Assembly (NCBI GenBank): GCA_963740635.1
Contig: CAVUEQ010000001.1
Coordinates: 209,026-273,025 of the forward strand
Reading direction: 5' to 3'
Origin: an uncultured bacterium
GTDB taxonomy: Bacteria > Patescibacteriota > Saccharimonadia > UBA4664
Length of the DNA: 64,000 nucleotides
Within the stretch, counting starts at the first letter, position 1; each line of letters starts with the position of its first letter. The notes beneath the pieces are model-generated. The model was not told the DNA's origin. It did no database searches and worked only from the letters and a program-made list of their open reading frames with translations. The translations under genes and the position numbers were made by a program. Shown piece after piece: positions 8,057 to 62,809 of this stretch.

Positions 8057-8066
8057 CCAGCAACAA

Positions 8067-8106
8067 AATGACCCCAAAGCTTTACGGCTGAGGGGTCATT
8101 TTTTGT
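8067..8106 (+). terminator. Rho-independent terminator
   Basis: AATGACCCC (8067-8075) pairs with GGGGTCATT (8092-8100), followed by TTTTTTGT. It lies 11 nt after the stop at 8056. Confidence 0.7.
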
Positions 8107-11066: not shown

Positions 11067-11912
11067 CTACCGGATAACCCAGTTGCCGGCGCCGAGGTTG
11101 CGGACCTTGCCGGTGATCTCCATGAGGCTGATGATGTTGGCGAACTGGGCCGCGCTGAACCGGCCCTTTTCAATCAGCTCTTCGCTGGAGGTAGCGCCTT
11201 CCTCGAGCAGTTTGACGATGAGCTTTTCATCGGGGCTTTGCGCCGGGACGGGTACGGCTTCGCGGGCGTTGAAGCCGAGCGCATTGATGACGTCGGCGGA
11301 CGATGTGACGGGCGTGGCGCCGCTGCGCAGGAGATTGTTCGGTCCCGCCGAGAACTCGGAGTAGATGCTGCCGGGCACCGCCATCACCTGCCGGCCGAGG
11401 CCCAAAGCGCGGTGGGCTGTGATGAGCGCACCGCTTTTGGTGGCGGCTTCGGTGACGATGGTAGCGAAACTAAGCGCCGCGATAATGCGGTTGCGCTCCA
11501 CGAAATTTTCTTTGTAGGGGGGAATCCCAACTTCGTATTCGGAAACCAAGGCGCCGCCTTTGGCCAAAATCTCGGCGGCCAGTCCCCGGTGCCGCGGAGG
11601 GTAGATGCGGTCGAGCCCGTGGGCCAGCACTGCTACGGTCTTGCCGCCGGCGTCGAGGGCGGCGCGGTGGGCGATGGAATCAATGCCGATGGCCAGGCCA
11701 CTCACGATGACAGCGCCCGCACGCGACAATTCCTTCGCGATTTGGTAGGTCGCTTTCTCTCCGTAAATGGTGGGCTTGCGCGAGCCAACAATGGCGACGA
11801 GCGAATCTTTGGGCAATTCTCCTAAAACGTTAATGCTTTTGACGGGCGGGCCGGCCTGGCGCAGCTGATCTGGAAACTTACTTGATTTGGAAGAAATCTT
11901 AGAAATTTGCAT
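11067..11912 (-). CDS. dprA: DNA-processing protein DprA (Smf)
   Basis: 'IVGSRKPTIYGEKATYQIAKELSRAGAVIVSGLAIGIDSIAHRAAL...AVLAHGLDRIYP' is the canonical DprA Rossmann core. Confidence 0.9.
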   Translation of the reverse strand: MQISKISSKSSKFPDQLRQAGPPVKSINVLGELPKDSLVAIVGSRKPTIYGEKATYQIAKELSRAGAVIVSGLAIGIDSIAHRAALDAGGKTVAVLAHGLDRIYPPRHRGLAAEILAKGGALVSEYEVGIPPYKENFVERNRIIAALSFATIVTEAATKSGALITAHRALGLGRQVMAVPGSIYSEFSAGPNNLLRSGATPVTSSADVINALGFNAREAVPVPAQSPDEKLIVKLLEEGATSSEELIEKGRFSAAQFANIISLMEITGKVRNLGAGNWVIR

Positions 11913-11955: not shown

Positions 11956-12188
11956 CATACCTCTTTGCAGAGGTAAGAACCACACTAACATACCACTAAT
12001 TCGCCTGTAAAAATATCTAAATGCACCCTCCTTTAGGTATTTGCTACAGGCGGATTAGTCCCTTCACACCCGTTACGCTATATGCGTTTCGCACAAAACG
12101 CCCGTGAGGTGAGGTTGAAGGGTGTAATAAAGACCCGACGCTTCGCGGTGACCACCCACCGCGTAGTTGCTCGGGTCTTTATTTGTTT
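11956..12188 (+). ncRNA. Candidate structured RNA of unknown class (independent sRNA or terminating leader)
   Basis: It is bounded by the promoter above and by a terminator: AGACCCGA 12131-12138 / TCGGGTCT 12171-12178, with an inner CGCGGTG/CACCGCG hairpin, then TTTATTTGTTT. Internal hairpins are UACCUCU/AGAGGUA (11958-11975) and a ~19-bp helix at 12002-12052 whose apical loop is UGCACCCUCC. No plausible ORF is present. Confidence 0.4.
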
Positions 12189-12204
12189 AATGTAGGATTG
12201 GATT

Positions 12205-13227
12205 ATGAATTATTTGATGGCGGTATTTCCGGGTCTGAGCGGATTGCTTGGCGAGGAGCTGAGCGGGCGGACTGGCTTGCATGGGCAATTGCTGGGCCGG
12301 GTGCGCGGGAGCGAGCTGGTGAGCGTGGAGGCGCGTGGTGATGCCGGGCTGCTGGAGCTGCGGCTGGCTGAGGATGTTTTTCGGCGGCTCGCGGAGGTCA
12401 AATTGACCGGGAAGCCGGCGGATTTGAAGAATATTGCGGCTGCACTGGGCAAGGCTGCCGGTCTGCCGGCGCGGGTGAAATACCGGGTGGTGGTGCAGGC
12501 CGACGACGCGCGCTGGCGCGGGTACCGGCGCGTGGATATGCAGCGGGCGGCCGAAGCGGGCCTGCTGCGGTCGCATGCCGGCTGGCGATTGTCGGCACAG
12601 GAGGCTCCGGTGGAGATTTGGCTGCACCAGGTGGGATGGACGCTGCACGCGAGCCTGAGGCTGACTACGGCTGAGCACCGCGCGCGGGGTGGCCGTGAGG
12701 TGGAGCGCAGTGCGGCGCTGCGGCCGACGATTGCTGCCGCGATGGTGCAGGCCTCTGAGCCGGCCGAGAATGACGTGTTCCTGGACCCGATGTGCGGCAC
12801 CGGGACGATACTGCTGGAGCGGGCGCTGGCCGGCCGGCATGCGCTGCTGATTGGCGGTGATATTGATCCGGCGGCCGTGCGGGCTACCCAGGAGAATTTT
12901 GGGCCGCGGCACAAGCCGGTCCGCATTGAGCGCATGGACGCGCGGAAATTGCCCCTGGAGGACGGCTCGGTCGATAAATTGGTGACGAATTTGCCTTGGG
13001 GACGCCAAATTGGTGATCCGGCTGGATTGCCGGCGTTGTATGCCGGCGTGTTGGCTGAGGCTGTGCGGGTCGTGCGCCCCGGCGGGCGGGTCGTGCTGCT
13101 CACTGGTGAGCCGGGGGTGCTGGAGAGGGCTTTTAAGGGTAATTCTAACTTGAAGCCGATTCGCGTGGTTGCTGGGATTGAGGTTTTAGGCCGGCCCGCG
13201 AGCATGTTTGTGCTAGAGCGCACATAA
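12205..13227 (+). CDS. THUMP-domain class I SAM-dependent RNA methyltransferase
   Basis: 'LDPMCGTGTILLE' is the SAM-binding motif I and 'VTNLPWGRQIG' is the NPPY-like motif IV. The N-terminal ~150 aa is THUMP-like. AGGA lies upstream of the ATG. Confidence 0.8.
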   Translation: MNYLMAVFPGLSGLLGEELSGRTGLHGQLLGRVRGSELVSVEARGDAGLLELRLAEDVFRRLAEVKLTGKPADLKNIAAALGKAAGLPARVKYRVVVQADDARWRGYRRVDMQRAAEAGLLRSHAGWRLSAQEAPVEIWLHQVGWTLHASLRLTTAEHRARGGREVERSAALRPTIAAAMVQASEPAENDVFLDPMCGTGTILLERALAGRHALLIGGDIDPAAVRATQENFGPRHKPVRIERMDARKLPLEDGSVDKLVTNLPWGRQIGDPAGLPALYAGVLAEAVRVVRPGGRVVLLTGEPGVLERAFKGNSNLKPIRVVAGIEVLGRPASMFVLERT

Positions 13228-13246
13228 GGATATTTAAAGCGGCGGA

Positions 13247-13288
13247 GTTATATGCACTTTGCATATATGCGAAATGCATATAGTTACG
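13247..13288. repeat. AT-rich nested palindrome, copy A
   Basis: The sequence is agTTATATGCAcTTTGCATATATGCGAAATGCATATAGTTac, lying between convergent gene ends (13227 and 13326). It belongs to the same family as 16699-16738 and 59135-59178. Confidence 0.8.
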
Positions 13289-13325
13289 GTCTGTTGCATC
13301 AGCCGGCGGCTGGCATGCACGACAA

Positions 13326-13892
13326 TCAGATGAGTTCGAACGTGGTGTCTTGGGGTGAGGGGTGCGCGAGTTGCTGCAAAACGACGGCTGCGGAGGTAGC
13401 GATGACTTGCGGGAGCTTTGCCTGCTCTTCTTCGTTAAAAGACTTGAGCACGTAAACTTCGCTGGGCTCCACGGAGCGGTCGTTGAGGCTGATGCCGACC
13501 TTTACGCGCATGAATTTATTGCCGATGTGGGCGATTGTGGAATTTACGCCCTGGTGGCCGCTGCCCGAGATGCCATCCGTGCGCAGGCGGAGCCGGCCGA
13601 ACGGTACGTCGACGTCGTCGAATATCACCCAGACGTCGGCCGGGGTGAGTTTGTAGTGCTGCAGGAGGCGCTGAATGGCCTCGCCCGAGAGATTCATCAT
13701 GTTTTGGGGCTTGGCCAGCACGATCTGCTCGCCGTCGAGACTGGCGGTGGCAACATCGGATTTGAGCTTGGGCTCGGGTTTCCAGGTGGCGCTGAGCGAC
13801 GCGGCGAGGCGGTCGGCCACCATGAAGCCGATATTGTGCCGGGTGTGGGCGTAGCGGGCGCCGATATTGCCGAGGCCTACGACCAATTTCAT
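13326..13892 (-). CDS. pth: Peptidyl-tRNA hydrolase
   Basis: 'MKLVVGLGNIGARYAHTRHNIGFMVADRLA' is the canonical Pth N-terminus. The ATG at 13892 overlaps the upstream stop (ATGA), so I do not use the track start at 13934. Confidence 0.9.
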   Translation of the reverse strand: MKLVVGLGNIGARYAHTRHNIGFMVADRLAASLSATWKPEPKLKSDVATASLDGEQIVLAKPQNMMNLSGEAIQRLLQHYKLTPADVWVIFDDVDVPFGRLRLRTDGISGSGHQGVNSTIAHIGNKFMRVKVGISLNDRSVEPSEVYVLKSFNEEEQAKLPQVIATSAAVVLQQLAHPSPQDTTFELI

Positions 13893-14329
13893 TTCACTAG
13901 CCCCCGTTCGAGCGCCGGCTGGTAGCTTTTCCAAAATTGCGAATGCAGGGGCTCGGGCAGGTTGTCGCTGGTGAACCAGCCGACCTCAGCGATTTTGCCG
14001 GGCTCGCCGATGGAAATTGTGTCCGGGTCTACCAGGACGGCGTGCATCACGGTGACCCAGTGCGTGGGCGTGCCGTTGGGGAGGGTGCGGTGGGCGTCGT
14101 AGACGTTGAGGAAGCGGATGTCGAGAGGGGTGGTTTTGAGCTCCTCTTTGACTTCGCGACGGACAGCGTCGTTAATGGTTTCGTTGAATTCAATCGCGCC
14201 GCCGCCAACGTCCCAACGGCCGCGCTCGTCGCGGGCGCCGTGGCCGCGTTTTTGCAGCAATACCCGGCCTTGGGCGTCGTGGACTATGAACGACGCTGAT
14301 ACACCGATGAAGTCGATTCCGCTTAACAT
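13889..14329 (-). CDS. NUDIX hydrolase
   Basis: The Nudix box 'GGGAIEFNETINDAVRREVKEELK' fits GX5EX7REUXEEXGU. Confidence 0.85.
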   Translation of the reverse strand: MLSGIDFIGVSASFIVHDAQGRVLLQKRGHGARDERGRWDVGGGAIEFNETINDAVRREVKEELKTTPLDIRFLNVYDAHRTLPNGTPTHWVTVMHAVLVDPDTISIGEPGKIAEVGWFTSDNLPEPLHSQFWKSYQPALERGLVK

Positions 14330-15715: not shown

Positions 15716-16651
15716 TTATAACCATTGCCAGGTACGGGAAATCCAGTTGGTGAGGGTGGTGGTGGCGCCGAAGCGGTCGCCGGCGCCGAGAACCACTGTG
15801 ATCACATCGTGCCCGCCAGTACGAGTAAGGCCGACGAAGCATTCGCCGGCAGCTGGGGTGTACCCCGTTTTTATACCATAAAACGTACCCGATGCCAAGA
15901 GGTCGTTGGTGGTTTTGAGATTGTATGTGCGGCCCTGTCCGCTGGTGAGGCTTATGGATGTGTGGGTAACGATGGTAGCCAGGTCGCGGTTTGCGAGCAG
16001 CAGGCCGGCAATTTTGGCCAGGGCCGAGGCCGAGGCGTAGTTGCCTTCGTCCTGGAGGCCGCTGGCATTGGAGAATCGGGCGCCCACTATCCCCCATTCG
16101 CTCATCTTGGCGTTCATGCGGGCGGCAAATTTGGTGACTGAGCCGGCGTCCCAGATAGCGAGGGCGTCGGCGGCGTCGTTGGCGGAGGGCACGAGCATGG
16201 CTTCGAGCAGGCTCGACAGCCGGAAATTGTCGCCCGGGAACAGGCCGGCGGTTTCGGCGGCCGTGGGGTAATCCGGGAGCGTGGGAATGGTGACGGTATC
16301 GCCCGGGCTGTGGCGCGACAAGATCACCAACGCTGTCACAATTTTTGTGACACTGGCAATGGGCAGCTTGGCCGAGGCGTTTTTGGAATACAGCACCGTG
16401 GCGGTGGAGCGGTCGATGGCGATGGCCGCGGTGGCGTTTAGAGCCAATGGCTCGGTGGAGGCCTGGATGGGCAGCGCGGATGGCTCGAGCGGCGCGTTGG
16501 TGGTGATGACGTTGGGGTTGGTGGCTGCGTTGGCAACCGCCGTAACGCCGGTGGCGCGGGCGGAGAGGTGCGCCCGGGTATCTGAGGCAAGGTGGGACCA
16601 GAGGCCGGTTGAGTGGAGGGCGAGGACAACTAGTAATGCTAGTGTTTTCAT
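15716..16651 (-). CDS. Serine-type D-alanyl-D-alanine carboxypeptidase (S11 family)
   Basis: A signal peptide is present, with SxxK 'ASVTK', SxN 'PSANDAA' and KTG 'IKTGYT'. Confidence 0.85.
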   Translation of the reverse strand: MKTLALLVVLALHSTGLWSHLASDTRAHLSARATGVTAVANAATNPNVITTNAPLEPSALPIQASTEPLALNATAAIAIDRSTATVLYSKNASAKLPIASVTKIVTALVILSRHSPGDTVTIPTLPDYPTAAETAGLFPGDNFRLSSLLEAMLVPSANDAADALAIWDAGSVTKFAARMNAKMSEWGIVGARFSNASGLQDEGNYASASALAKIAGLLLANRDLATIVTHTSISLTSGQGRTYNLKTTNDLLASGTFYGIKTGYTPAAGECFVGLTRTGGHDVITVVLGAGDRFGATTTLTNWISRTWQWL

Positions 16652-16698
16652 CTAAAGGGTAACCCTCTGGGCTTTATGAGAATACGTCTATTCCACGA

Positions 16699-16738
16699 AA
16701 CTATATGCATTTCGCATATATGCAGATTGCATATAGTT
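16699..16738. repeat. AT-rich nested palindrome, copy B
   Basis: The sequence is AACTATATGCAtTTCGCATATATGCAGAtTGCATATAGTT, with 11-bp perfect outer arms and the inner palindrome GCATATATGC. It abuts the stop codon of the pseudouridine synthase gene (16740). Confidence 0.8.
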
Positions 16739-16739
16739 T

Positions 16740-17429
16740 TCATGGTTGCGTTTTCCCTGGGACGTGGCCGGAGCTGTCGGTTTCGATCCAGTGGCTAGGC
16801 GGGAGGTTGCCGAGGATGAAACTGCCGGCGTGGGTACGGTGCAGCCGCGTAATGCCGTAGCCGAGGGCGCCGAAGGTGCGGCGGAGTTGGCGGTTGCGGC
16901 CTTCTTCGAGCTCGACGGTCACGTGGGGTCCCTGGACTGAGATAATTGCTACCCTACTAGGACCGTCCGGGAGCTGGATGCCGTGGCTGAGTTTGGGTTG
17001 GTCACTGGGCTTGAGGGCGGTGGTGAGCGTGAGTTCGTAACGCTTAGTTTTGCCGAGCGACGGATGGGTGAGCCGGTTGATGAATGGGCCGTCATCGGAC
17101 AGCAAAATGAGGCCTGACGAGTCGCGGTCGAGGCGGCCGGCGATGCGCAGGCGGCCGAATTTGGCCGGCAGCAATTCGTAGAGCGTGGGGCCCCCGCCTT
17201 GCCGGGCGCGGCTGGAGATGTAGCCGGCGGGCTTGTTGAGCATGACGTAAGTGTGGGCGGTGCGGGGTGTGAGCGGTTGCTCGTCGAGGGTGAGATGGTC
17301 GGTCGGTGCGATTATTTGACCGAGGGTGGCGGGCCGGCCGTTGAGTTTAACGCGTCCGGCCGTGATGGCCGTATCGGCGGCGCGCCGCGACAGTCCGGAG
17401 GCTGAGGCCACGAATTGGTTAATTCTCAC
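16740..17429 (-). CDS. Pseudouridine synthase, RsuA/RluB family
   Basis: It has an S4 domain 'INQFVASASGLSRRAADTAITAGRVKLNG' and the catalytic 'GRLDRDSSGLILLSDDG'. The GTG at 17429 is preceded by GGAGG at 6-nt spacing and is preferred over the ATG at 17534, which lies inside scpB. Confidence 0.85.
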   Translation of the reverse strand: MRINQFVASASGLSRRAADTAITAGRVKLNGRPATLGQIIAPTDHLTLDEQPLTPRTAHTYVMLNKPAGYISSRARQGGGPTLYELLPAKFGRLRIAGRLDRDSSGLILLSDDGPFINRLTHPSLGKTKRYELTLTTALKPSDQPKLSHGIQLPDGPSRVAIISVQGPHVTVELEEGRNRQLRRTFGALGYGITRLHRTHAGSFILGNLPPSHWIETDSSGHVPGKTQP

Positions 17430-23569: not shown

Positions 23570-23646
23570 GGTCCCGTCGTCTAGCGGCCTAGGATGCCTC
23601 CCTCTCACGGAGGAGATCAGGGGTTCGAATCCCCTCGGGACTACCA
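23570..23646 (+). tRNA. tRNA-Glu: tRNA-Glu (anticodon CUC), CCA encoded
   Basis: I folded the cloverleaf by hand. The acceptor is GGTCCCG/CGGGACT. The anticodon stem CCTCC/GGAGG carries the loop CT-CTC-AC. The T arm is AGGGG-TTCGAAT-CCCCT, with discriminator A and CCA. It is highly similar to the E. coli tRNA-Glu backbone. Confidence 0.9.
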
Positions 23647-23651
23647 AAGTA

Positions 23652-23689
23652 TTTATGCTTAAATAATGGCTTTCACGAGCCATTATTTG
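23652..23689 (+). repeat. Direct repeat DR1 (contains tRNA terminator hairpin)
   Basis: TTTATGCTTAAATAATGGCTTTCACGAGCCATTATTTG contains the 10-bp hairpin AATAATGGCT/AGCCATTATT (23662-23687) followed by a T-rich run. It is repeated at 27199-27235 with about 3 mismatches and 1 indel. Confidence 0.75.
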
Positions 23690-33499: not shown

Positions 33500-36400
33500 T
33501 TAGGGTTTGTCCGACTGAACGTACTGCTGCCAGGACTTGATAGGCACTTCGCCGAATTTGACCTCGCCGAGGGCGCGGAGCAGCACGACGCCGATTTCGG
33601 CGTTGGTGACGAGCGGGATGTGGTTGTCGATGGCCAGGCGGCGGACCTCGGCGGCGTCGGCGTCGTCGTCGGTGCTCGACGGCACGTTGATCATGAGGGT
33701 GAGGTGGGCCGAGGTGATGGCGGTGTGGACCGTGGGTTCTTTGTCATCGCGGAGTTTGTTGAGCGGGGTCGACGGAATGCCGTGCTGCTTGAGGTAAAGG
33801 TGGGTGCCTATGGTGGAGAAAATTTTCCAGCCTTCTTCGTGGAGCCGGACAGCTGCCTCGGTGATCTTGGGTTTCTGGTCGTCGGGTACGGAAATGTAGA
33901 TGTGCTTGCCGTTTAATGGCTGGTCCGTGGACAGCCACGAGGCGTAGAAGGCTTCGAGGAGGTTGCGGCCGATGCTGGCGACTTCGCCGGTACTGGCCAT
34001 TTCGACGCCCGCGACCGGGTCGGCGCCTTTGAGACGATTGTACGAGAATTGCGGGCTCTTGACGCCGACGTAGTCAAGCTCGAGGGTGTTGTATGACTCA
34101 GGCTCGTAGGTGCCGAGCATTACCTGCGTGGCGATGGTGATGAAATTGTGGCCGGTAACTTTCGACACGAACGGGAAGCTGCGGCTGGCACGGACGTTGG
34201 TTTCGATGACGCCGAGGTCATTATCTTTGGCGATGAATTGGATGTTGAACGGGCCGGTGACGCCGAGGGCCTGGATAATTTCGGCCGTGATTTTCTTGGC
34301 CCGCCGGATGGTTTCCAGATACAGGCGCTGGGGCGGGAGCACGACGGTGGCGTCGCCCGAGTGGATGCCGGCGTTTTCGATGTGCTCGGAGATGGCCGAT
34401 ATCACGATGCGGCCGTGGTCGGCTACACCGTCGATCTCGAGCTCTTTGGCGCCCTCGATGAAGCGCGAAATGACTACCGGGTGGTCGGGCGAGAGTTTGG
34501 TGGCGCGGGCAAGGTAGCCCGCCAGCTCTTCGGGCGTGGTGACCACGCTCATGGCGCCGCCCGAGAGCACGTAGCTGGGGCGGATGAGCACCGGGTAGCC
34601 GGCCTTGGTGGCGAAGGCCTTGGCGCGGGCCAGCGTGGTGACCTCCTGCCACTCGGGTTGGTCGATGCCGAGCTGGTTAAGGAGTGCCGAGAAGTGGCGG
34701 CGGTTTTCGGCCTGGTCGATACTTGCGGCGGGGGTGCCGAGGATGTGGTAGCCGGCATTGGCGAGCGGTACGGCCAGGTTGTTGGCGATTTGGCCGCCCA
34801 CCGAGATCACGATGTCGGCGGGGGCTTCGAAGTCGGCGATGTCCTGCATGCGCTCGAGGGTGAGCTCTTCGAAGTAGAGGCGGTCGGAGCGGTTGAAGTC
34901 GGTGGAGACGGTTTCGGGGTTGGAGTTGACGATGATGGTGCGGTGGCCGCTGCGGCGCAGGGTGCCGGCCACGCCCACGGCGCACCAGTCGAACTCCACG
35001 GAGCTGCCGATGCAGTACGGGCCGGAGCCGAGCACGATGACCGGATTGGCCCCTGCCTTCTCATGGCCCAGCGGCTGCACGTCGTGGTCGGTGCCGTGGT
35101 AGGTGGTGTAGAGGTAATTCGTGGCGGCGTCGAACTCGCCCGCGAGGGTGTCGATGAGCTTAACGACCGGCTTTACGCCGAGCTTCAGGCGGAGGGTGCG
35201 GACTGCGGCCTCGGTGGAGCCGGTGATTTTAGCGATGGTTTTGTCGGCGAAGCCGTTTTGCTTGGCGCGGCGCAAGAGGCTGGTGTCGAGTTTGGACGTG
35301 CCTAGTTCGGCTTCTATACCGGCGATGCGGCCGAGTTGGTCCAAAAACCAGGGGTCGATACCAGTGAGGTCATGGGCCTTGGCGGTGTCGCCGGCCGCTC
35401 GCAAGTAATCGTACAGGGCATACAGGCGGTGGTCGGTGGCAGAGGCGATTTCGGCTTCAGGATCGGCAAATTCGTACGGATGGTCGCTGAGGCCGGAGGC
35501 GCCGGTGTTGGTCATGCGGACGGCTTTTTGGATGGCTTCGGTGAATGAGCGGCCGAGAGCCATCACCTCCCCCACGCTCTTCATCTCCGAGCCGATGCTG
35601 CGGTCCGACGCCCCGAGTTTGGTGAGGTCCCAGCGCGGCATTTTGACGGCCAGGTAGTCGAGGGCAGGTTCGTAAAACGCGCTGGTGCTGCCGGTGACGG
35701 CGTTTTTGAGTTCGATTAGCGAGTAGCCGAGCATGAGTTTGGCGGCCACGAAGGCCAGCGGGTAACCAGTGGCCTTGCTGGCCAGGGCGCTGGAGCGGCT
35801 GAGGCGGGCGTTGACCTCGATTACGCGGTACTCGGACGTGGCGGGGTTGAGCGCGTACTGGATATTGCATTCCCCGACTATGCCGAGGTGCTTGATGGTT
35901 TTGATGGCGACCTCGCGCAGGCCGTGGTATTCGGCATTGGTGAGGGTCTGGCTGGGGGCTACTACGATCGACTCGCCGGTGTGGATGCCCATGGGGTCGA
36001 AGTTTTCCATGTTGCAGACGGTGATGGTGTTGCCGAGGCGGTCGCGCACCACTTCGTATTCAATTTCTTTCCAGCCGCCGAGGTATTCTTCGATGAGGAT
36101 TTGGCTGGTGGCTTGGAAGGCCTCCGCGGTTCGGCGGGCGAGTTCTCCGGCGAGGTGACCCGCCCGGATCCCAGACCGCCCAGGGCGAAGCCAGCGCGCA
36201 TCATCACCGGGTAGCCGATGGCTTCGGCTGCCGTGAGCGCCTCCTTGACGTTGTAGGCGGTGAGGCTGCGGGCCGTGTGGACGCTGATTTCGGCCAGCGC
36301 TTGCTTGAACTGCTCCCGGTCTTCGGTGATTTCGACGGCGGTGATGGGCGTACCGAGGATCCGCACCCCGTACTTTTTGAGTACGCCGCTGTGGTGGAGG

Positions 36401-36714
36401 CTCAAACCTAGGTTGAGGGCGGTTTGGCCGCCGAAACTCAGGGTGATGGCGTCGGGCCGTTCAGTGGCGATGATGCGCGTCACGACCTCTTTAGTGAGCG
36501 GCTGGAAGTAAACCGTGTCGGCGACGTCGCCGTCGGTCTGGACGGTGGCGATATTGGGGTTAATGAGGACCGTTTTAATCCCCTCTTCACGCAGGGCCAT
36601 GATGGCTTGCGAGCCGGAATAATCGAATTCCCCCGCCTGGCCGATTTTTAGCCCTCCAGAGCCAAGAATGAGCACCTTTATGGGCAAATCGCGCTGGGTC
36701 ACATGTGAGCTCAT
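33500..36714 (-). pseudogene. carB: Carbamoyl-phosphate synthase large subunit, interrupted by a frameshift near 36163-36166
   Basis: The N-terminal ORF (36714->) reads '[22 protein letters not shown]...[12 protein letters not shown]' and then leaves frame. The -1 frame continues '[65 protein letters not shown]...' to 33500. The total of 3215 nt is one base short of an intact ~1071-codon carB. Confidence 0.9.
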
Positions 36715-37825
36715 AGCTTCCTCGCGAATTCGCTAAACAGCCAGGCGGTGTCGGTGGGGCCGGGCGCGGCTTCGGGGTGGAATTGCACGGCGAAGAACGG
36801 CAAGGTGTGGTGCGCGATGCCCTCGACCGAATCGTCGTTGAGGTTGCGGAAGGTTACCTGCCAGTCGCGTGGGAGGGAGCCGGCGTCGACGGCGTAGCCG
36901 TGGTTTTGGCTGGTGATGTAGCCCTGCCCCTCCGTGGCCAAGACGGACAGGCGGCGGTTGGCAATTACGGGCTGGTTGTGGCCGCGGTGGCCGAATTTGA
37001 GCTTGTAGGTGCGGCCGCCCGCGGCCAGCGCCATGAGCTGCGTGCCGAGGCAAATGCCAAATACCGGCTTGTGGCCGCGTATGGCCCGCCGCAACACCGC
37101 GATGGTGGCGGGATAATCGGTGGGGTCGCCGGGGCCGTTGGAGACGAACACGCCGTCATACGCCTCGCCGGTGTAATCGTAATCGTGGGGCACGCGCTTG
37201 ACCGTGAGGCCGAGCGCCACCAGGTGCCGGATGATGTTTTGCTTCATCCCGCAATCGACCGCGATGATGGTCTTGGGTTGGCCCGGGTTAATAATTTCCG
37301 GCTCGGTCACCAAGACTTGACGGGTGCCGGGAGTTTGAGATCCGGGTGGGGGCCGGTCGCGATGGCGCCGGGCATTACACCCCGGGTGCGCAGGTATTTA
37401 GTGAGGGCGCGGGTATCGACGCCGGTGATCACGGGCACGCCCTGCTCGCGCAGCCACTCGCCGAGCGACTGATGGCTGCCGGCGTGGCTCCATTGTTCGG
37501 TCAGTTCGCTCACCACGACGCCGCGCAGGTGGATCTTTGCGCTCTCCCAGGTTTCCGGGCCGGGTACGCCGTAATTGCCCAGGAGCGGGTACGTAAAGAC
37601 GAGAATCTGGCCGGCATATGAGGGGTCGGTGAGGGTTTCGACATAACCGGTCATGCCGGTGTTGAAAACCACCTCTGCCGCCAGGCTGTCGGACTGGCCT
37701 TTGGGAATGCGGCCGGCGAAGCTCGCGCCACCCTTGAGAACCAGGCGTCCGGGCACAAAAAAATCGCCCCCATCGGGACGACCGCTTGCGTTTGAGTTTC
37801 GAATTGTCTGTGCCGGCTTATTCAC
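36711..37825 (-). pseudogene. carA: Carbamoyl-phosphate synthase small subunit, split or frameshifted at 37307-37316
   Basis: The N-terminal domain ORF ('EVVFNTGMTGYVETLTDPSY...') ends 'PAPVKSW*' at 37307. The GATase domain ('TIIAVDCGMKQNIIRHL...VFGICLGTQL...FQFHPEA-type') continues in the -1 frame from 'LVTEPEII'. GTG/TTG codons overlap the stop (TTGGTGA). Confidence 0.85.
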
Positions 37826-58410: not shown

Positions 58411-59037
58411 CTAGTCTTGGCGGTGGGCTTCGCAGTAGGCCGGGTCGTGCTGCTTGGAGCAGAGGTTGTAACCCACGACGGCTAGGATGTCGCCGGCGGG
58501 GGCGTAGTAGCCGGAGGGTCCGGAGGCGACACGCAATTCCACGGGGATGGTGCCGCGGCCGAGGCTGTCGACCGCGCTGAAACTGCCGCGCGACAGGTCA
58601 ATGATGCGGCCGGTCCAGATCTCGGGGCCGTAATCGTTGACGCGGCAGACCACGGTGTGGCCGTTGTAGAGGTCGGTGACTAGAAGGTACGTGCCGCGCG
58701 GGAAGGTGCGGCTGGCGCAGGTAAGGGAGTCGGGCGCGGGCAGGCCGAGCGCGTACCAGGAGCCGCGGCCGGTCATGGCGGGCGGCCCGGAAGCGGGCTG
58801 CGGCGTGGGCGGTCCGGCGATTACCGGCGCCTCAATCTTGACGCCGCCGGGGCCGGTGGTGTGCACGGCCACGCCGACCAGCGGTTTGCTGAGCGTGATG
58901 GCGTAGGCCAGCGAGCCCATGGAAACGGTGGCCAGCAATACCAAAAACGACCGCAAGACGTGCTTTGAGGTTTTGCGTTTGACGAGCTTCTTCTTGGTGA
59001 GCACGTGGATGACGCGCCGTTTGGTTTTGGCTTTCAT
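58411..59037 (-). CDS. RlpA-like double-psi beta-barrel (lytic transglycosylase-like) protein
   Basis: An N-terminal anchor is followed by 'GRGSWYALGLPAPDSLTCASRTFPRGTYLLVTDLYNGHTVVCRVNDYGP'. Confidence 0.8.
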   Translation of the reverse strand: MKAKTKRRVIHVLTKKKLVKRKTSKHVLRSFLVLLATVSMGSLAYAITLSKPLVGVAVHTTGPGGVKIEAPVIAGPPTPQPASGPPAMTGRGSWYALGLPAPDSLTCASRTFPRGTYLLVTDLYNGHTVVCRVNDYGPEIWTGRIIDLSRGSFSAVDSLGRGTIPVELRVASGPSGYYAPAGDILAVVGYNLCSKQHDPAYCEAHRQD

Positions 59038-59134
59038 GTGTTTGTTTTGGTGCTGTGTGAGATTACTTTAGCATAAGCGGGTTATTAATGCGAATGCGGC
59101 CCTCTCTATTACGGTACCGTATATTAACAAGGCG

Positions 59135-59178
59135 GTAACTATATGCACTTCGCATATATGCAGAATGCATATAGTTAC
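59135..59178. repeat. AT-rich nested palindrome, copy C
   Basis: The sequence is GTAACTATATGCAcTTCGCATATATGCAGAATGCATATAGTTAC, with 13-bp perfect outer arms and the inner palindrome GCATATATGC. Confidence 0.8.
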
Positions 59179-59206
59179 GCGGAAAGGTATACGCTGTAAA
59201 TAGGCT

Positions 59207-59353
59207 TACTCGTCGAGTGGCGGCCGCAAGGTTTTGGTAGGCCCGGAAAGCGGCGCCTGTAGCGGGCAGCATTTTTTGGGTGTAGTCATTAAACTCGAGC
59301 AGTAACTGCTGGAGCCCAGGAGCGTCGGCCGGAGTGGCGGAGCGGATGTTCAT
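59207..59353 (-). pseudogene. Possible 5' remnant of a GNAT acetyltransferase gene
   Basis: 'MNIRSATPADAPGLQQLLLEFNDY...' resembles a GNAT N-terminus. After ~48 codons the frame runs into the palindromic repeat ('YMHSAYMRSAYSY'), so no complete domain exists. Confidence 0.35.
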
Positions 59354-59367
59354 GCCGGAATTATACG

Positions 59368-60516
59368 TTAATAAGTAACGCTTTTGCCGATCGGAACGAT
59401 CGAGTACCAGGTGTTACCGGGGTCGAGGGGGACGTCGTTGCCATTGGCGTCGAGGAGCTTAGTGCGGGAGGTGTGTGAATCTTTGGACCAGGTTACCGGC
59501 ACCACGTCGCCGTCGCGCATCACCCAGCCCTGCCCGGTGCCGACGGTTTGCATGATGACGGTGGATTCGCCGATGCGGGTGAAGCCGTAGCTGGTGGGCA
59601 TCATTTCGACCACCACGTTCTTGACGTGGATTTGTTTGCCGGTGTTGCGGTCTATGTGGGGCGCGCCGGACAGGAACCGCGCGTAATCATTGGTGGTGGA
59701 ATCGTATTTGTAATCGACCTGGTAGCCGGCGTAGGAGTAATCAATGTGGATATTGGGGTGCGGCGGGTTGGCGTTGGGGGCGTCGGGTTTGCGCGGGCTG
59801 ACGGTGAAGCTCGAGGGTTTGAAGAAACCGAGGCGCTTCTCGAGGGCGTCGAGCTTGTCTGAGGTGGTGTAGAGGTTGTGCGGGGCGAGGCGGTCGCCGG
59901 TGCGGAAGAAAGCGTCGGCGGCAAAGCTGAGCGCGTTCATGTCTTTCATACCTAGCGGGCTCACCAGGTCCAGGGCGTCGGCGTTGCCGCCCGCGTGGGC
60001 TACCGGCGAGTTGAATTCGAGGGCCCAGTCGATGAAGTAGGTGCGGAGGCTGCGCACGGGGCCGATGCTAGCCGGACGGTTGTCGAGGAAGAACGCTACG
60101 AAGCGGGTAATACCGCCCTCGGCGTTGGCCTCATACACGACGCCGGCGTCGCTGAGGCCGGACTGCGGCCGGGCGTCGGGGTGGTTTTCGATGACTATGC
60201 CGGTGATCGGGCGGGCGGCAAGCTCCGGCGACACCGGCAGGCCGGTGAGCGGCGACAGCCGGGTGGACGGCGTGGGGCTGGGCGTGGGCGAGGCCTTGGG
60301 CGCGGGCGTGCCGGCCAAAGGCGGTTTGGACCTGGACAGCGTCAAGCCCAGCACGCCCGCGGCGACTACCGCCACGACGCCGCCCGCGATCCATAACGCC
60401 AGCTTCCGGTGATCCGCGATCCAGGATGAGCCGGCTGCTAGCGGCTTGGTAAGCGGTTTGGCCGGCGGCTTGGGCGGCTCGGCTACAACCGTCTCGGGCG
60501 TAGGGTCTTCGGTCAT
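59368..60516 (-). CDS. DUF3048 (YerB-like) secreted or anchored protein
   Basis: 'GLSDAGVVYEANAEGGITRFVAFF...IGPVRSLRTYF' is present. An extended -10 TGCTATAAT (60523-60531) ends 6 nt before the ATG, a leaderless layout. Confidence 0.75.
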   Translation of the reverse strand: MTEDPTPETVVAEPPKPPAKPLTKPLAAGSSWIADHRKLALWIAGGVVAVVAAGVLGLTLSRSKPPLAGTPAPKASPTPSPTPSTRLSPLTGLPVSPELAARPITGIVIENHPDARPQSGLSDAGVVYEANAEGGITRFVAFFLDNRPASIGPVRSLRTYFIDWALEFNSPVAHAGGNADALDLVSPLGMKDMNALSFAADAFFRTGDRLAPHNLYTTSDKLDALEKRLGFFKPSSFTVSPRKPDAPNANPPHPNIHIDYSYAGYQVDYKYDSTTNDYARFLSGAPHIDRNTGKQIHVKNVVVEMMPTSYGFTRIGESTVIMQTVGTGQGWVMRDGDVVPVTWSKDSHTSRTKLLDANGNDVPLDPGNTWYSIVPIGKSVTY

Positions 60517-62283: not shown

Positions 62284-62401
62284 CGGGTAGATTATACCTT
62301 TTAAGGCGGAATTCTTCACGCTCTCCCCTATGCGAATTTTTTTCGAGTATTCGTTTTTCAAAAAATAGGTATACTTTATATCCATATAAATAATACCTAA
62401 A

Positions 62402-62809
62402 ATGAGGGAAATGGAATTTCTACCGGCGCCAATACCGACCCAGGCGTTTTACGTCCTGCTGTCATTATGTGATAGGAGCTTGCATGCTTACGCGATCAAG
62501 GGCTCGCTTTTTGGTGTCTCGCTTGGAAGTGTGCAACTGGCTCAGGGGCGAATATCCCGCCTGCTTACTTGGATGACCGATCAAGGGTTGATCGAGATAG
62601 CTGGGGAATTGCCGGCTGGGAAGTCGGGAAAACTTAGGATGCATTATCGGATAACGTCGGAGGGCCGGCTGGTACTGTTGGCCGAGTGCCGGCGACTGAA
62701 ATACGCGGTCACGGTGGCCGAGACCCAAGGCCTCCTAGAGGATGAAACGCCGCTGGATATCAAGCGGCAACAACTGGAGTTTCGTTTGGCCGAAGCATCA
62801 GAAGCCTAA
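62402..62809 (+). CDS. PadR-family winged-helix transcriptional regulator
   Basis: '[19 protein letters not shown]...[23 protein letters not shown]...[11 protein letters not shown]' is present. Confidence 0.75.

Follow-up and report, generated by a model that had tools for sequence, protein, structure and literature searches.

Genomic setting of the palindromic elements

A 64,000-nt stretch of DNA from an uncultured bacterium of the lineage UBA4664 (assembly GCA_963740635.1, contig CAVUEQ010000001.1, positions 209,026 to 273,025 of the forward strand), hereafter called the window, carries three copies of an AT-rich nested palindrome in its intergenic DNA. The host is a soil-type member of the Saccharimonadia (candidate phyla radiation, CPR/TM7) with a G+C content of 59% and a genome of less than 1 Mb. 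The three copies, designated A, B and C, are as follows.

13246..13288, no strand: copy A, AGTTATATGCA-CTTT-GCATATATGC-GAAA-TGCATATAGTT(AC), one outer arm with two transition changes
16699..16738, no strand: copy B, AACTATATGCA-TTTC-GCATATATGC-AGAT-TGCATATAGTT, 12-bp perfect arms
59135..59178, no strand: copy C, GTAACTATATGCA-CTTC-GCATATATGC-AGAA-TGCATATAGTTAC, 13-bp perfect arms

An earlier note, made from the letters of the window, had reported three AT-rich palindromes at these places, and a search with the pattern TATATGCA-N4-GCATATATGC-N4-TGCATATA, which has 26 fixed bases, confirmed them: three exact matches were found in the window (13249-13282, 16702-16735 and 59140-59173) against an expectation of 0 from 100 dinucleotide-preserving shuffles of it. 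The family is non-random, and the window has no other family of non-coding repeats. An nhmmer profile built from copies A-C revealed no further or degenerate copy above noise in the window, where isolated half-sites are also missing outside the elements and the 7-mer TATATGC/GCATATA occurs only twice outside them in 64 kb. No fourth copy lies in the 3.3 kb past the right end of the window (a Logan contig of the same strain), and the copy count thereby covers 67.3 kb of DNA of the source strain (64-kb window + 3.3 kb). The description of the palindromes as AT islands also stands, the G+C content of the core being 0.29-0.32 compared with 0.59 for the window.

All three copies are intergenic, although intergenic DNA makes up only about 8.6% of the window (P of about 6e-4). 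Copy A occupies a 98-bp gap between the convergent genes of an RlmL-like methyltransferase (12205-13227, + strand) and pth (13326-13934, - strand, stop at 13326), both assigned with Pfam. Copy B starts 1 nt past the stop codon of rluB (16740-16742) and ends 47 nt before the start (16651) of dac, a D-Ala-D-Ala carboxypeptidase gene (Pfam). Copy C is found in a 330-bp gap from a DUF3048 gene (stop at 59368) to a DPBB_1/RlpA-like gene (start at 59037), 191 nt past the former and 99 nt upstream of the latter; it also lies 58 nt upstream of a promoter-like block, CGCTTATGCTAAAG, which is conserved in relatives as CGCTTATG(G/C)TAA. Every copy had been placed just 3' of a gene end. All of them do follow a gene 3' end, but B and C are at the same time upstream of dac and the DPBB_1 gene, at 47 and 99 nt. 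A gene remnant had also been proposed beside copy C, and support for this is weak: the open reading frame (ORF) concerned encodes a 59-aa N-terminus similar to GNAT (PDB 7zhc, E = 0.97), with no Pfam match and no homologue.

59179..59353, - strand: start of an ORF beside copy C, which runs through copy C to a stop at 59063; possible truncated N-terminus of a GNAT acetyltransferase, absent from this gap in relatives

Architecture, predicted folding and orientation

The conserved unit is 40 bp long, AAC-TATATGCA-Y4-GCATATATGC-R4-TGCATATA-GTT, and is composed of two mirror-image 7-5-7 sub-palindromes, TATATGC-N5-GCATATA, with the central ATAT in common. The outer arms, previously described as perfect inverted repeats of 11-13 bp, are indeed perfect in B (12 bp) and C (13 bp), while in copy A the arm is perfect over 8 bp, or extends to 11 bp with two transition mismatches (AGTTA for AACTA). 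Variation among the copies is confined to the spacers: none of the 26 core positions and five of the eight spacer positions differ (P = 2e-4 if changes were random). The spacers are biased as well, with pyrimidines at 12/12 positions of the 5' spacer and purines at 11/12 positions of the 3' spacer in copies A-C.

In single-stranded form, DNA or RNA, a copy is predicted to make a single hairpin of about 20 bp. The spacers would face each other in it as small, partly paired internal loops. The RNA folds have energies of -14.6 to -25.7 kcal/mol (z-scores of -3.4 to -7.3) and the DNA folds -8.5 to -16.4 kcal/mol. In copies B and C, the predicted pairing is lengthened by copy-specific flanking bases, for instance in B, where CCATGA pairs with TCGTGG at 5/6 positions. 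By analogy, the pattern of an invariant core with variable but biased spacers may be likened to the stems and loops of repetitive extragenic palindromes (REPs). Each end of the element also bears an outward-facing TATAGT hexamer, which is similar to a promoter -10 box; as a promoter within or after copy B it is unconvincing, as no -35 box was found there.

According to the earlier note, copy A is inverted relative to B and C, and this is not borne out. The spacer similarities are contradictory (A vs B, 94.6% inverted and 86.5% direct; A vs C, 92.3% inverted and 92.5% direct), while B and C, with 95% identity in direct and 87.5% in inverted comparison, are co-oriented. In addition, A and C have about 16 nt of extra left flank in common in the same orientation (repeat family D3, 80% over 59 nt), and because this flank is on the same side of both, A and C are co-oriented as well.

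13230..13245, + strand: flank of copy A, ATATTTAAAGCGGCGG, a 12/15 match to the flank of copy C with one gap
59121..59136, + strand: flank of copy C, ATATTAACAAGGCGG(T), common to the flank of copy A

The common flank suggests that A and C may stem from a longer asymmetric source unit of about 59 nt in the same orientation. On flank and spacer evidence together, A, B and C all have the same orientation relative to minus-strand transcription, for which the chance probability is 1 in 4 (n = 3).

Comparison with relatives

Four independent relatives (L129-L131, L132, L140 and L141 in our locus labels) retain the gene order histidine kinase, response regulator, scpA, scpB, rluB, dac, der, nudix, pth and convergent methyltransferase, except that L140 and L141 have no nudix gene. 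Protein identity to the closest relatives is 66-68% for Dac and 72-83% for DUF3048. When the orthologous intergenic regions were compared, no relative with conserved gene order was found to bear the element at any of the three positions, and the relatives' DNA (about 136 kb, plus about 42 kb from L140 and L141) contains no motif, half-site or comparable AT-rich nested palindrome. Absence from all sampled relatives indicates that the element is derived, lineage-specific and inserted, and not an ancestral regulatory site.

An insertion signature is present at copy B. In 4/4 relatives, rluB and dac overlap by ATGA according to the junction sequences, and the corresponding junction in the window holds the following features.

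16652..16735, - strand: 84-bp segment absent from relatives, consisting of the copy B core + 47 nt, within the ancestral rluB/dac ATGA overlap
16736..16743, - strand: relic ATGAAAAC at the rluB stop, the ancestral dac start; first copy of an 8-bp direct duplication, whose AAAC is one outer arm of copy B
16644..16651, - strand: second ATGAAAAC, with the working dac start codon; second copy of the 8-bp direct duplication

Since the relatives possess the ATGA overlap and two copies of ATGAAAAC surround the 84 bp, the segment is, as read from these junctions, an insertion into the overlap with an 8-bp target duplication. Of the 47 nt, three form an AAC/GTT arm and about 44 are unrelated DNA that includes the present dac ribosome-binding region. 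The insert also creates a 31-codon ORF (MKTICNLHICEMHIVSWNRRILIKPRGLPFR; 16644-16743, - strand), whose start overlaps the rluB stop and whose stop overlaps the dac start (both ATGA); the probability that this ORF is open by chance is about 0.24. Translational coupling from rluB to dac could be relayed via this ORF.

The gaps of the other two copies vary among relatives. Between the DUF3048 and DPBB genes, the gap measures 38, 91 and 42 bp in L135, L137 and L138, compared with 330 bp in the window, and an unrelated gene fills it in L133. The pth-methyltransferase gap is empty in one case and otherwise holds a TfoX_N gene, a 162-aa ORF, or an extracytoplasmic function (ECF) sigma factor and two further genes, depending on the relative.

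Gaps orthologous to window 13228-13325: L129 13387-13553; L132 7820-8152; L140 13211-13699; L141 12999-15086

This convergent gap is a hotspot of variable gene content among relatives, and copy A fills the spot in the window.

Likeness to known systems

As a short imperfect extragenic palindrome that is repeated (three copies of 40-44 nt, all intergenic), the element resembles REPs and REP doublets forming hairpins (REPINs). These are likewise repeated imperfect palindromes of 20-40 nt, strictly extragenic and preferentially located at gene 3' ends and in convergent gaps, with conserved stems and varying loop or bulge positions, and the mirror-image doublet that folds to one longer hairpin is similar to a compact REPIN. 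REPs are elements of Proteobacteria that are mobilised by Y1 transposases, the REP-associated tyrosine transposases (RAYTs), whose genes usually have REPs at their flanks, and they number tens to hundreds per genome, whereas three copies were counted here in 67.3 kb. Unlike REPs, the element has no GTAG head, and no RAYT gene is present in the window. REPs usually match or exceed the G+C content of their host, whereas the element is AT-rich; REPINs are about 80-110 nt long, whereas the whole doublet here takes 40 nt; and Y1 transposition of REPs yields no target duplication, whereas copy B has one of 8 bp.

Miniature inverted-repeat transposable elements (MITEs), such as Correia elements in Neisseria, RUP and ERIC, share with the element the terminal inverted repeats of 11-13 bp (here 12 bp in B, 13 bp in C, and 8 bp or 11 bp with two mismatches in A), the lack of an encoded protein and the intergenic insertion; Correia elements have outward-facing -10-like hexamers as well. 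However, MITEs are usually larger (>50-100 bp vs 40-44 bp here). A target duplication accompanies one insertion, that of copy B, where it encloses 84 bp that lack an inverted repeat at the far end. A parent insertion sequence with the same ends is not present in the window, where an IS110-family transposase is the only transposase, and no RAYT, DDE or serine transposase was found beside any copy among the roughly 65 window ORFs (Pfam). With no GTAG head and no RAYT seen in the window, and in view of the size and the placement of the duplication, the element is neither a strict REP nor a strict MITE.

A link to IS110-family elements, which the earlier note had raised, was not supported. The sole IS110 transposase gene of the window (25465-26445) lies about 8.7 kb from the nearest copy (B), and no split palindrome flanks it. 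An 8-mer common to the 5' region of this gene and the palindrome is at chance level.

DNA uptake sequences (DUS) of Neisseria were considered too, as these also occur as a repeated inverted pair forming a hairpin downstream of genes, and competence-related genes are known in the host lineage, with dprA in the window and TfoX_N in a relative. An uptake sequence is expected at about 1/kb, including inside genes, and the 7-mer TATATGC/GCATATA is not over-represented outside the elements, so this candidate was rejected. Likewise rejected were a centromere cluster, canonical parS being absent from the window, and an integron attC site: the elements are 40-44 nt long, copy C has GTTACGC (6/7) and copy B the misfit GTTTTCA, and the flanks are syntenic housekeeping genes with no integrase present. 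In the Rfam 15 gathering-score scan, the window, copy B included, gave tRNA only, and around copies A and C Rfam searches at E up to 5 gave chance-level matches only, so that no known RNA family matches the elements.

A further resemblance was met outside the window. A scan of representative genomes with a loose pattern returned 27 scattered matches, none in Saccharimonadia, and the window's own copies were not among them. The N5/N5 spacing of the window copies is found in 12/27 of these matches, and six of the 12 are directly upstream of NrtR-family genes (NUDIX + NrtR_WHD), in Acidobacteriota, Pseudomonadota (Alphaproteobacteria), Deinococcota, Eremiobacterota and Myxococcota. At least six unclassified metagenome contigs likewise have the site upstream of NrtR-family genes.

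TATGC-N5-GCATATATGC upstream of NrtR-family genes, genome loci: L006, L013, L016, L021, L025, L027
TATGC-N5-GCATATATGC upstream of NrtR-family genes, metagenome loci: L036, L059, L063, L076, L108, L119

These sites overlap or adjoin a TTGAC -35 box. A second N5-GCATA completes a double site in seven loci (L006, L013, L016, L021, L025, L027 and L036), while the other five metagenome loci have only a degenerate second half-site. By its sequence and placement, the site looks like a conserved double autoregulatory operator, TATGC-N5-GCATA-TATGC-N5-GCATA, with two adjacent palindromes fit for two winged-helix dimers. In most of the NrtR motifs described so far, the site is a 21-bp palindrome built on a GT-N7-AC core, and no motif could be defined for Deinococcus in the 2008 study of NrtR (PMC2330246).

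Origin of the element

The reading we favour, tentatively and at slightly less than even confidence, is that the copies represent a small lineage-specific palindromic insertion of REP/REPIN- or MITE-like type, or else what is left of a larger mobile element after decay, namely its conserved hairpin end. A REP-like element or mobile-element remnant was among the candidates of the earlier note, and it is preferred because of the absence in relatives, the insertion signature of copy B, the extragenic positions at gene 3' ends and the restriction of variation to the loop-like spacers; membership of the REPs in the strict sense does not stand, with no GTAG head and no RAYT gene in the window. The G+C content of the core, foreign to the window, the stable predicted hairpins and the association of copy C with a possible truncated gene, and thus with an indel, are counted in its favour too.

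As the comparison with relatives shows, the copies arrived by insertion into existing intergenic or junction DNA after the split from all sampled relatives. Under the favoured reading, a protein encoded outside the window, probably a transposase or another sequence-specific binder, would recognise the invariant TATGC/GCATA half-sites or the hairpin, and the element appears to be maintained via sequence-specific recognition of the four half-sites or of the hairpin. Copy B is the one datable insertion, and its 8-bp target duplication suggests a staggered cut. Alternatively, since one palindrome arm comes from the relic target, a short match of AAAC might have guided the insertion of copy B. As likely side effects, the transcripts of pth, rluB and DUF3048 would carry a hairpin at the 3' end, translational coupling of rluB and dac would be broken, and the -10-like TATAGT at each element end would face outward into neighbouring DNA.

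Several findings weigh against this reading. At copy B, the 8-bp duplication flanks 84 bp and not the 40-bp palindrome, and target duplications were looked for at copies A and C and none was found. Three copies were counted in 67 kb. The window (about 65 ORFs, Pfam) contains neither a RAYT/Y1 transposase nor an insertion sequence with matching ends, and instead of GTAG the heads read GTAAC, AAAC and GAGTT. If the representative collection includes the part of the source genome outside the window, that part has no additional exact-core copy, which would exclude a dispersed family of REP-like type. Among the metagenome matches listed (100 stretches), none has AAC arms or the full three-part layout, and viral contigs gave 0 matches to the element. 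Finally, recent insertions should have identical spacers, and the spacers of the copies differ, so that their divergence beside an invariant core points to long-term sequence-specific constraint, which an operator would explain equally well.

Alternative explanations

Such an operator, an unlikely alternative in our view, would be a double-stranded DNA site for a winged-helix dimer of dimers or similar protein, a regulator or nucleoid-organising factor encoded elsewhere in the genome, with copies B and C controlling dac and the DPBB_1/RlpA-like gene. The 30-bp core, TATGC-N5-GCATATATGC-N5-GCATA, is laid out like the sites that immediately precede NrtR-family genes at a minimum of 12 loci (six genome loci of five phyla and six unclassified metagenome contigs), and thus shares, as far as its sequence goes, its layout with a real class of two-dimer operators. 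The spacers differ among the copies and the four half-sites do not, no isolated half-site occurs elsewhere in the window, and B and C are upstream of two peptidoglycan-remodelling genes. However, at copy A two genes converge with their stop codons, and there is no promoter on which an operator could act. Every relative lacks the sites, and copy B came as an insertion with target duplication; operators do not usually arise in this way. Although the core layout matches, no NrtR homologue is encoded in the window (tblastn), which also has no -35 box at the elements, and none of the adjacent genes (rluB, dac, pth, methyltransferase, DUF3048 and DPBB_1) is related to nicotinamide adenine dinucleotide (NAD), whereas the NrtR sites overlap TTGAC directly upstream of nrtR. 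The NrtR sites are single per scanned locus (2.7-8 kb around each match), in contrast to three copies within 46 kb here, one of them between convergent genes. The conserved AAC/GTT arms are specific to the window copies, which in these arms and in their flanks are unlike the TTGAC-bearing NrtR sites, and the published NrtR motif (21 bp, GT-N7-AC) itself differs from the 30-bp double-site layout (PMC2330246).

The copies might also be recombination sites or scars that would be clustered in this 46-kb region with no dispersal, either sites of a site-specific recombinase or the hairpin ends of an excised or decayed integrative element, which we consider quite improbable. An asymmetric centre between arms of 11-13 bp is reminiscent of lox- or att-like sites, and the copies coincide with differences in gene content (the variable pth-methyltransferase gap, the expanded gap of copy C with its possible truncated gene, and the 84-bp insert of copy B); the lack of matches outside the window in the representative-genome scan would make them local if the genome is in the collection. 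Nevertheless, no integrase or recombinase adjoins any copy, the flanking gene order is as in relatives, with no inversion or large rearrangement visible between copies, the central 18 bp is longer than typical crossover spacers, and the attC consensus (RYYYAAC/GTTRRRY, at least 55 nt) does not fit. The elements might also act mainly at the RNA level as 3'-end hairpins on minus-strand transcripts, and this we regard as very unlikely. They would then be terminators that are weak or lack a U-tract, or would block 3'-to-5' exonucleases and so stabilise the mRNA upstream, a role known for REP hairpins in operons of E. coli. All three copies follow a gene 3' end and are co-oriented on flank and spacer evidence, the predicted RNA hairpins are stable, copy A stands at the end of the long histidine kinase-to-pth operon facing a convergent gene, and downstream of copies A and C, read on the minus strand, comes CCGCC and next a stretch moderately rich in U. 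The U-tract-less terminator suggested in the earlier note is weakened, however, by the canonical terminators that the lineage possesses (795-822, 8065-8102, 23661-23688 and about 12130-12190), with G+C-rich stems and A-/U-tracts; the stems of the elements are AT-rich (about 30% G+C) with no U-tract, and no copy was recognised as a terminator (by scan for A and B, by eye for the tail of C). Copy B is moreover inside an operon, between genes that overlap in relatives, and the 47 nt that come after it hold no convincing promoter, although der and pth, which are normally essential, lie further downstream. A purely structural role would also leave the identical stem sequence in three copies unexplained. 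A modest effect on RNA, such as 3'-end protection or attenuation, is possible.

Other features of the window

A candidate structured non-coding RNA of about 230 nt (11957-12190, + strand) is located between dprA (11067-11912, - strand) and the methyltransferase gene (12205, + strand). It has a TTGACA-17-TAACAT promoter and a canonical terminator, and is highly conserved in four Saccharimonadia relatives, with a consensus fold of -83.6 kcal/mol and 74 pairs, seven of which show compensatory changes. Its apical loop, UGCACCCUCCUUUAG, is similar to the anti-Shine-Dalgarno sequence, and no Rfam match was obtained at E up to 5. The candidate holds CTATATGCGTTTCGCA (12078-12093), which is identical to half of the palindrome of the copies at 15/16 positions, a similarity at chance level (E of about 1).

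A PadR-like gene (62402-62809, + strand), 3 kb from copy C, is preceded by an AT-rich nested palindrome of its own, AGGTATACTTTATAT-CC-ATATAAATAATACCT, at 62355-62400, which is probably the operator of that gene. A link to the three copies was rejected, as this palindrome (TTATAT-CC-ATATAA) is unrelated to them in sequence.

The window also contains an island of low G+C content (0.50-0.52) at 23683-28500, beside tRNA-Glu (23570-23646), which carries genes for an aldehyde dehydrogenase (third-codon-position G+C of 0.52), the IS110-family transposase (25465-26445) and a CopG-like antitoxin (27265-27534) and was probably acquired horizontally. The carbamoyl-phosphate synthase genes each appear split into two overlapping ORFs on the - strand, carA into 37307-37825 and 36711-37313 and carB into 35962-36714 and 33500-36052; a frameshift, a pseudogene or an error of assembly could account for each split. 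Over nearly the whole window (1-64000) the GC skew has positive values (0.05-0.22) regardless of gene orientation, while most genes are on the minus strand. Should the leading strand be the G-rich one, the majority of the window genes would be on the lagging strand.

Significance for Saccharibacteria

Genomes of CPR bacteria and Saccharibacteria are very small, tightly packed and generally repeat-poor. Our literature search found no description of such elements in Saccharibacteria, and to our knowledge no REP/REPIN-like family has been described in Patescibacteria. In the literature, the central sequence GCATATATGC was met only as an oligonucleotide with which H-NS/Lsr2 binding was tested, and this offers a lead but no evidence. 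The boldest interpretation, which we consider rather unlikely, is that the element is a self-propagating REPIN-like system, a compact 40-bp AT-rich mirror-doublet hairpin that would be the first described in Patescibacteria/CPR, mobilised by some enzyme and actively reshaping a minimal genome as it splits overlapping genes and marks deletion junctions, or else a mobile element that spreads NrtR-type two-dimer operators and with them binding sites of a winged-helix protein. On present evidence, the element is a curiosity of one lineage, of modest weight, rather than a system of a new kind.

If the copies instead bind a protein, the phylum would gain some of its first candidate sites for cis-regulation or chromosome organisation, and the sites adjoin cell-wall genes, which are relevant to the epibiotic lifestyle. 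If, as we tentatively favour, they are inserted palindromic repeats, selfish or structural DNA would still enter and persist in tiny CPR genomes, splitting translationally coupled genes, and the repeat would be a marker of recent genome change in an uncultured lineage.

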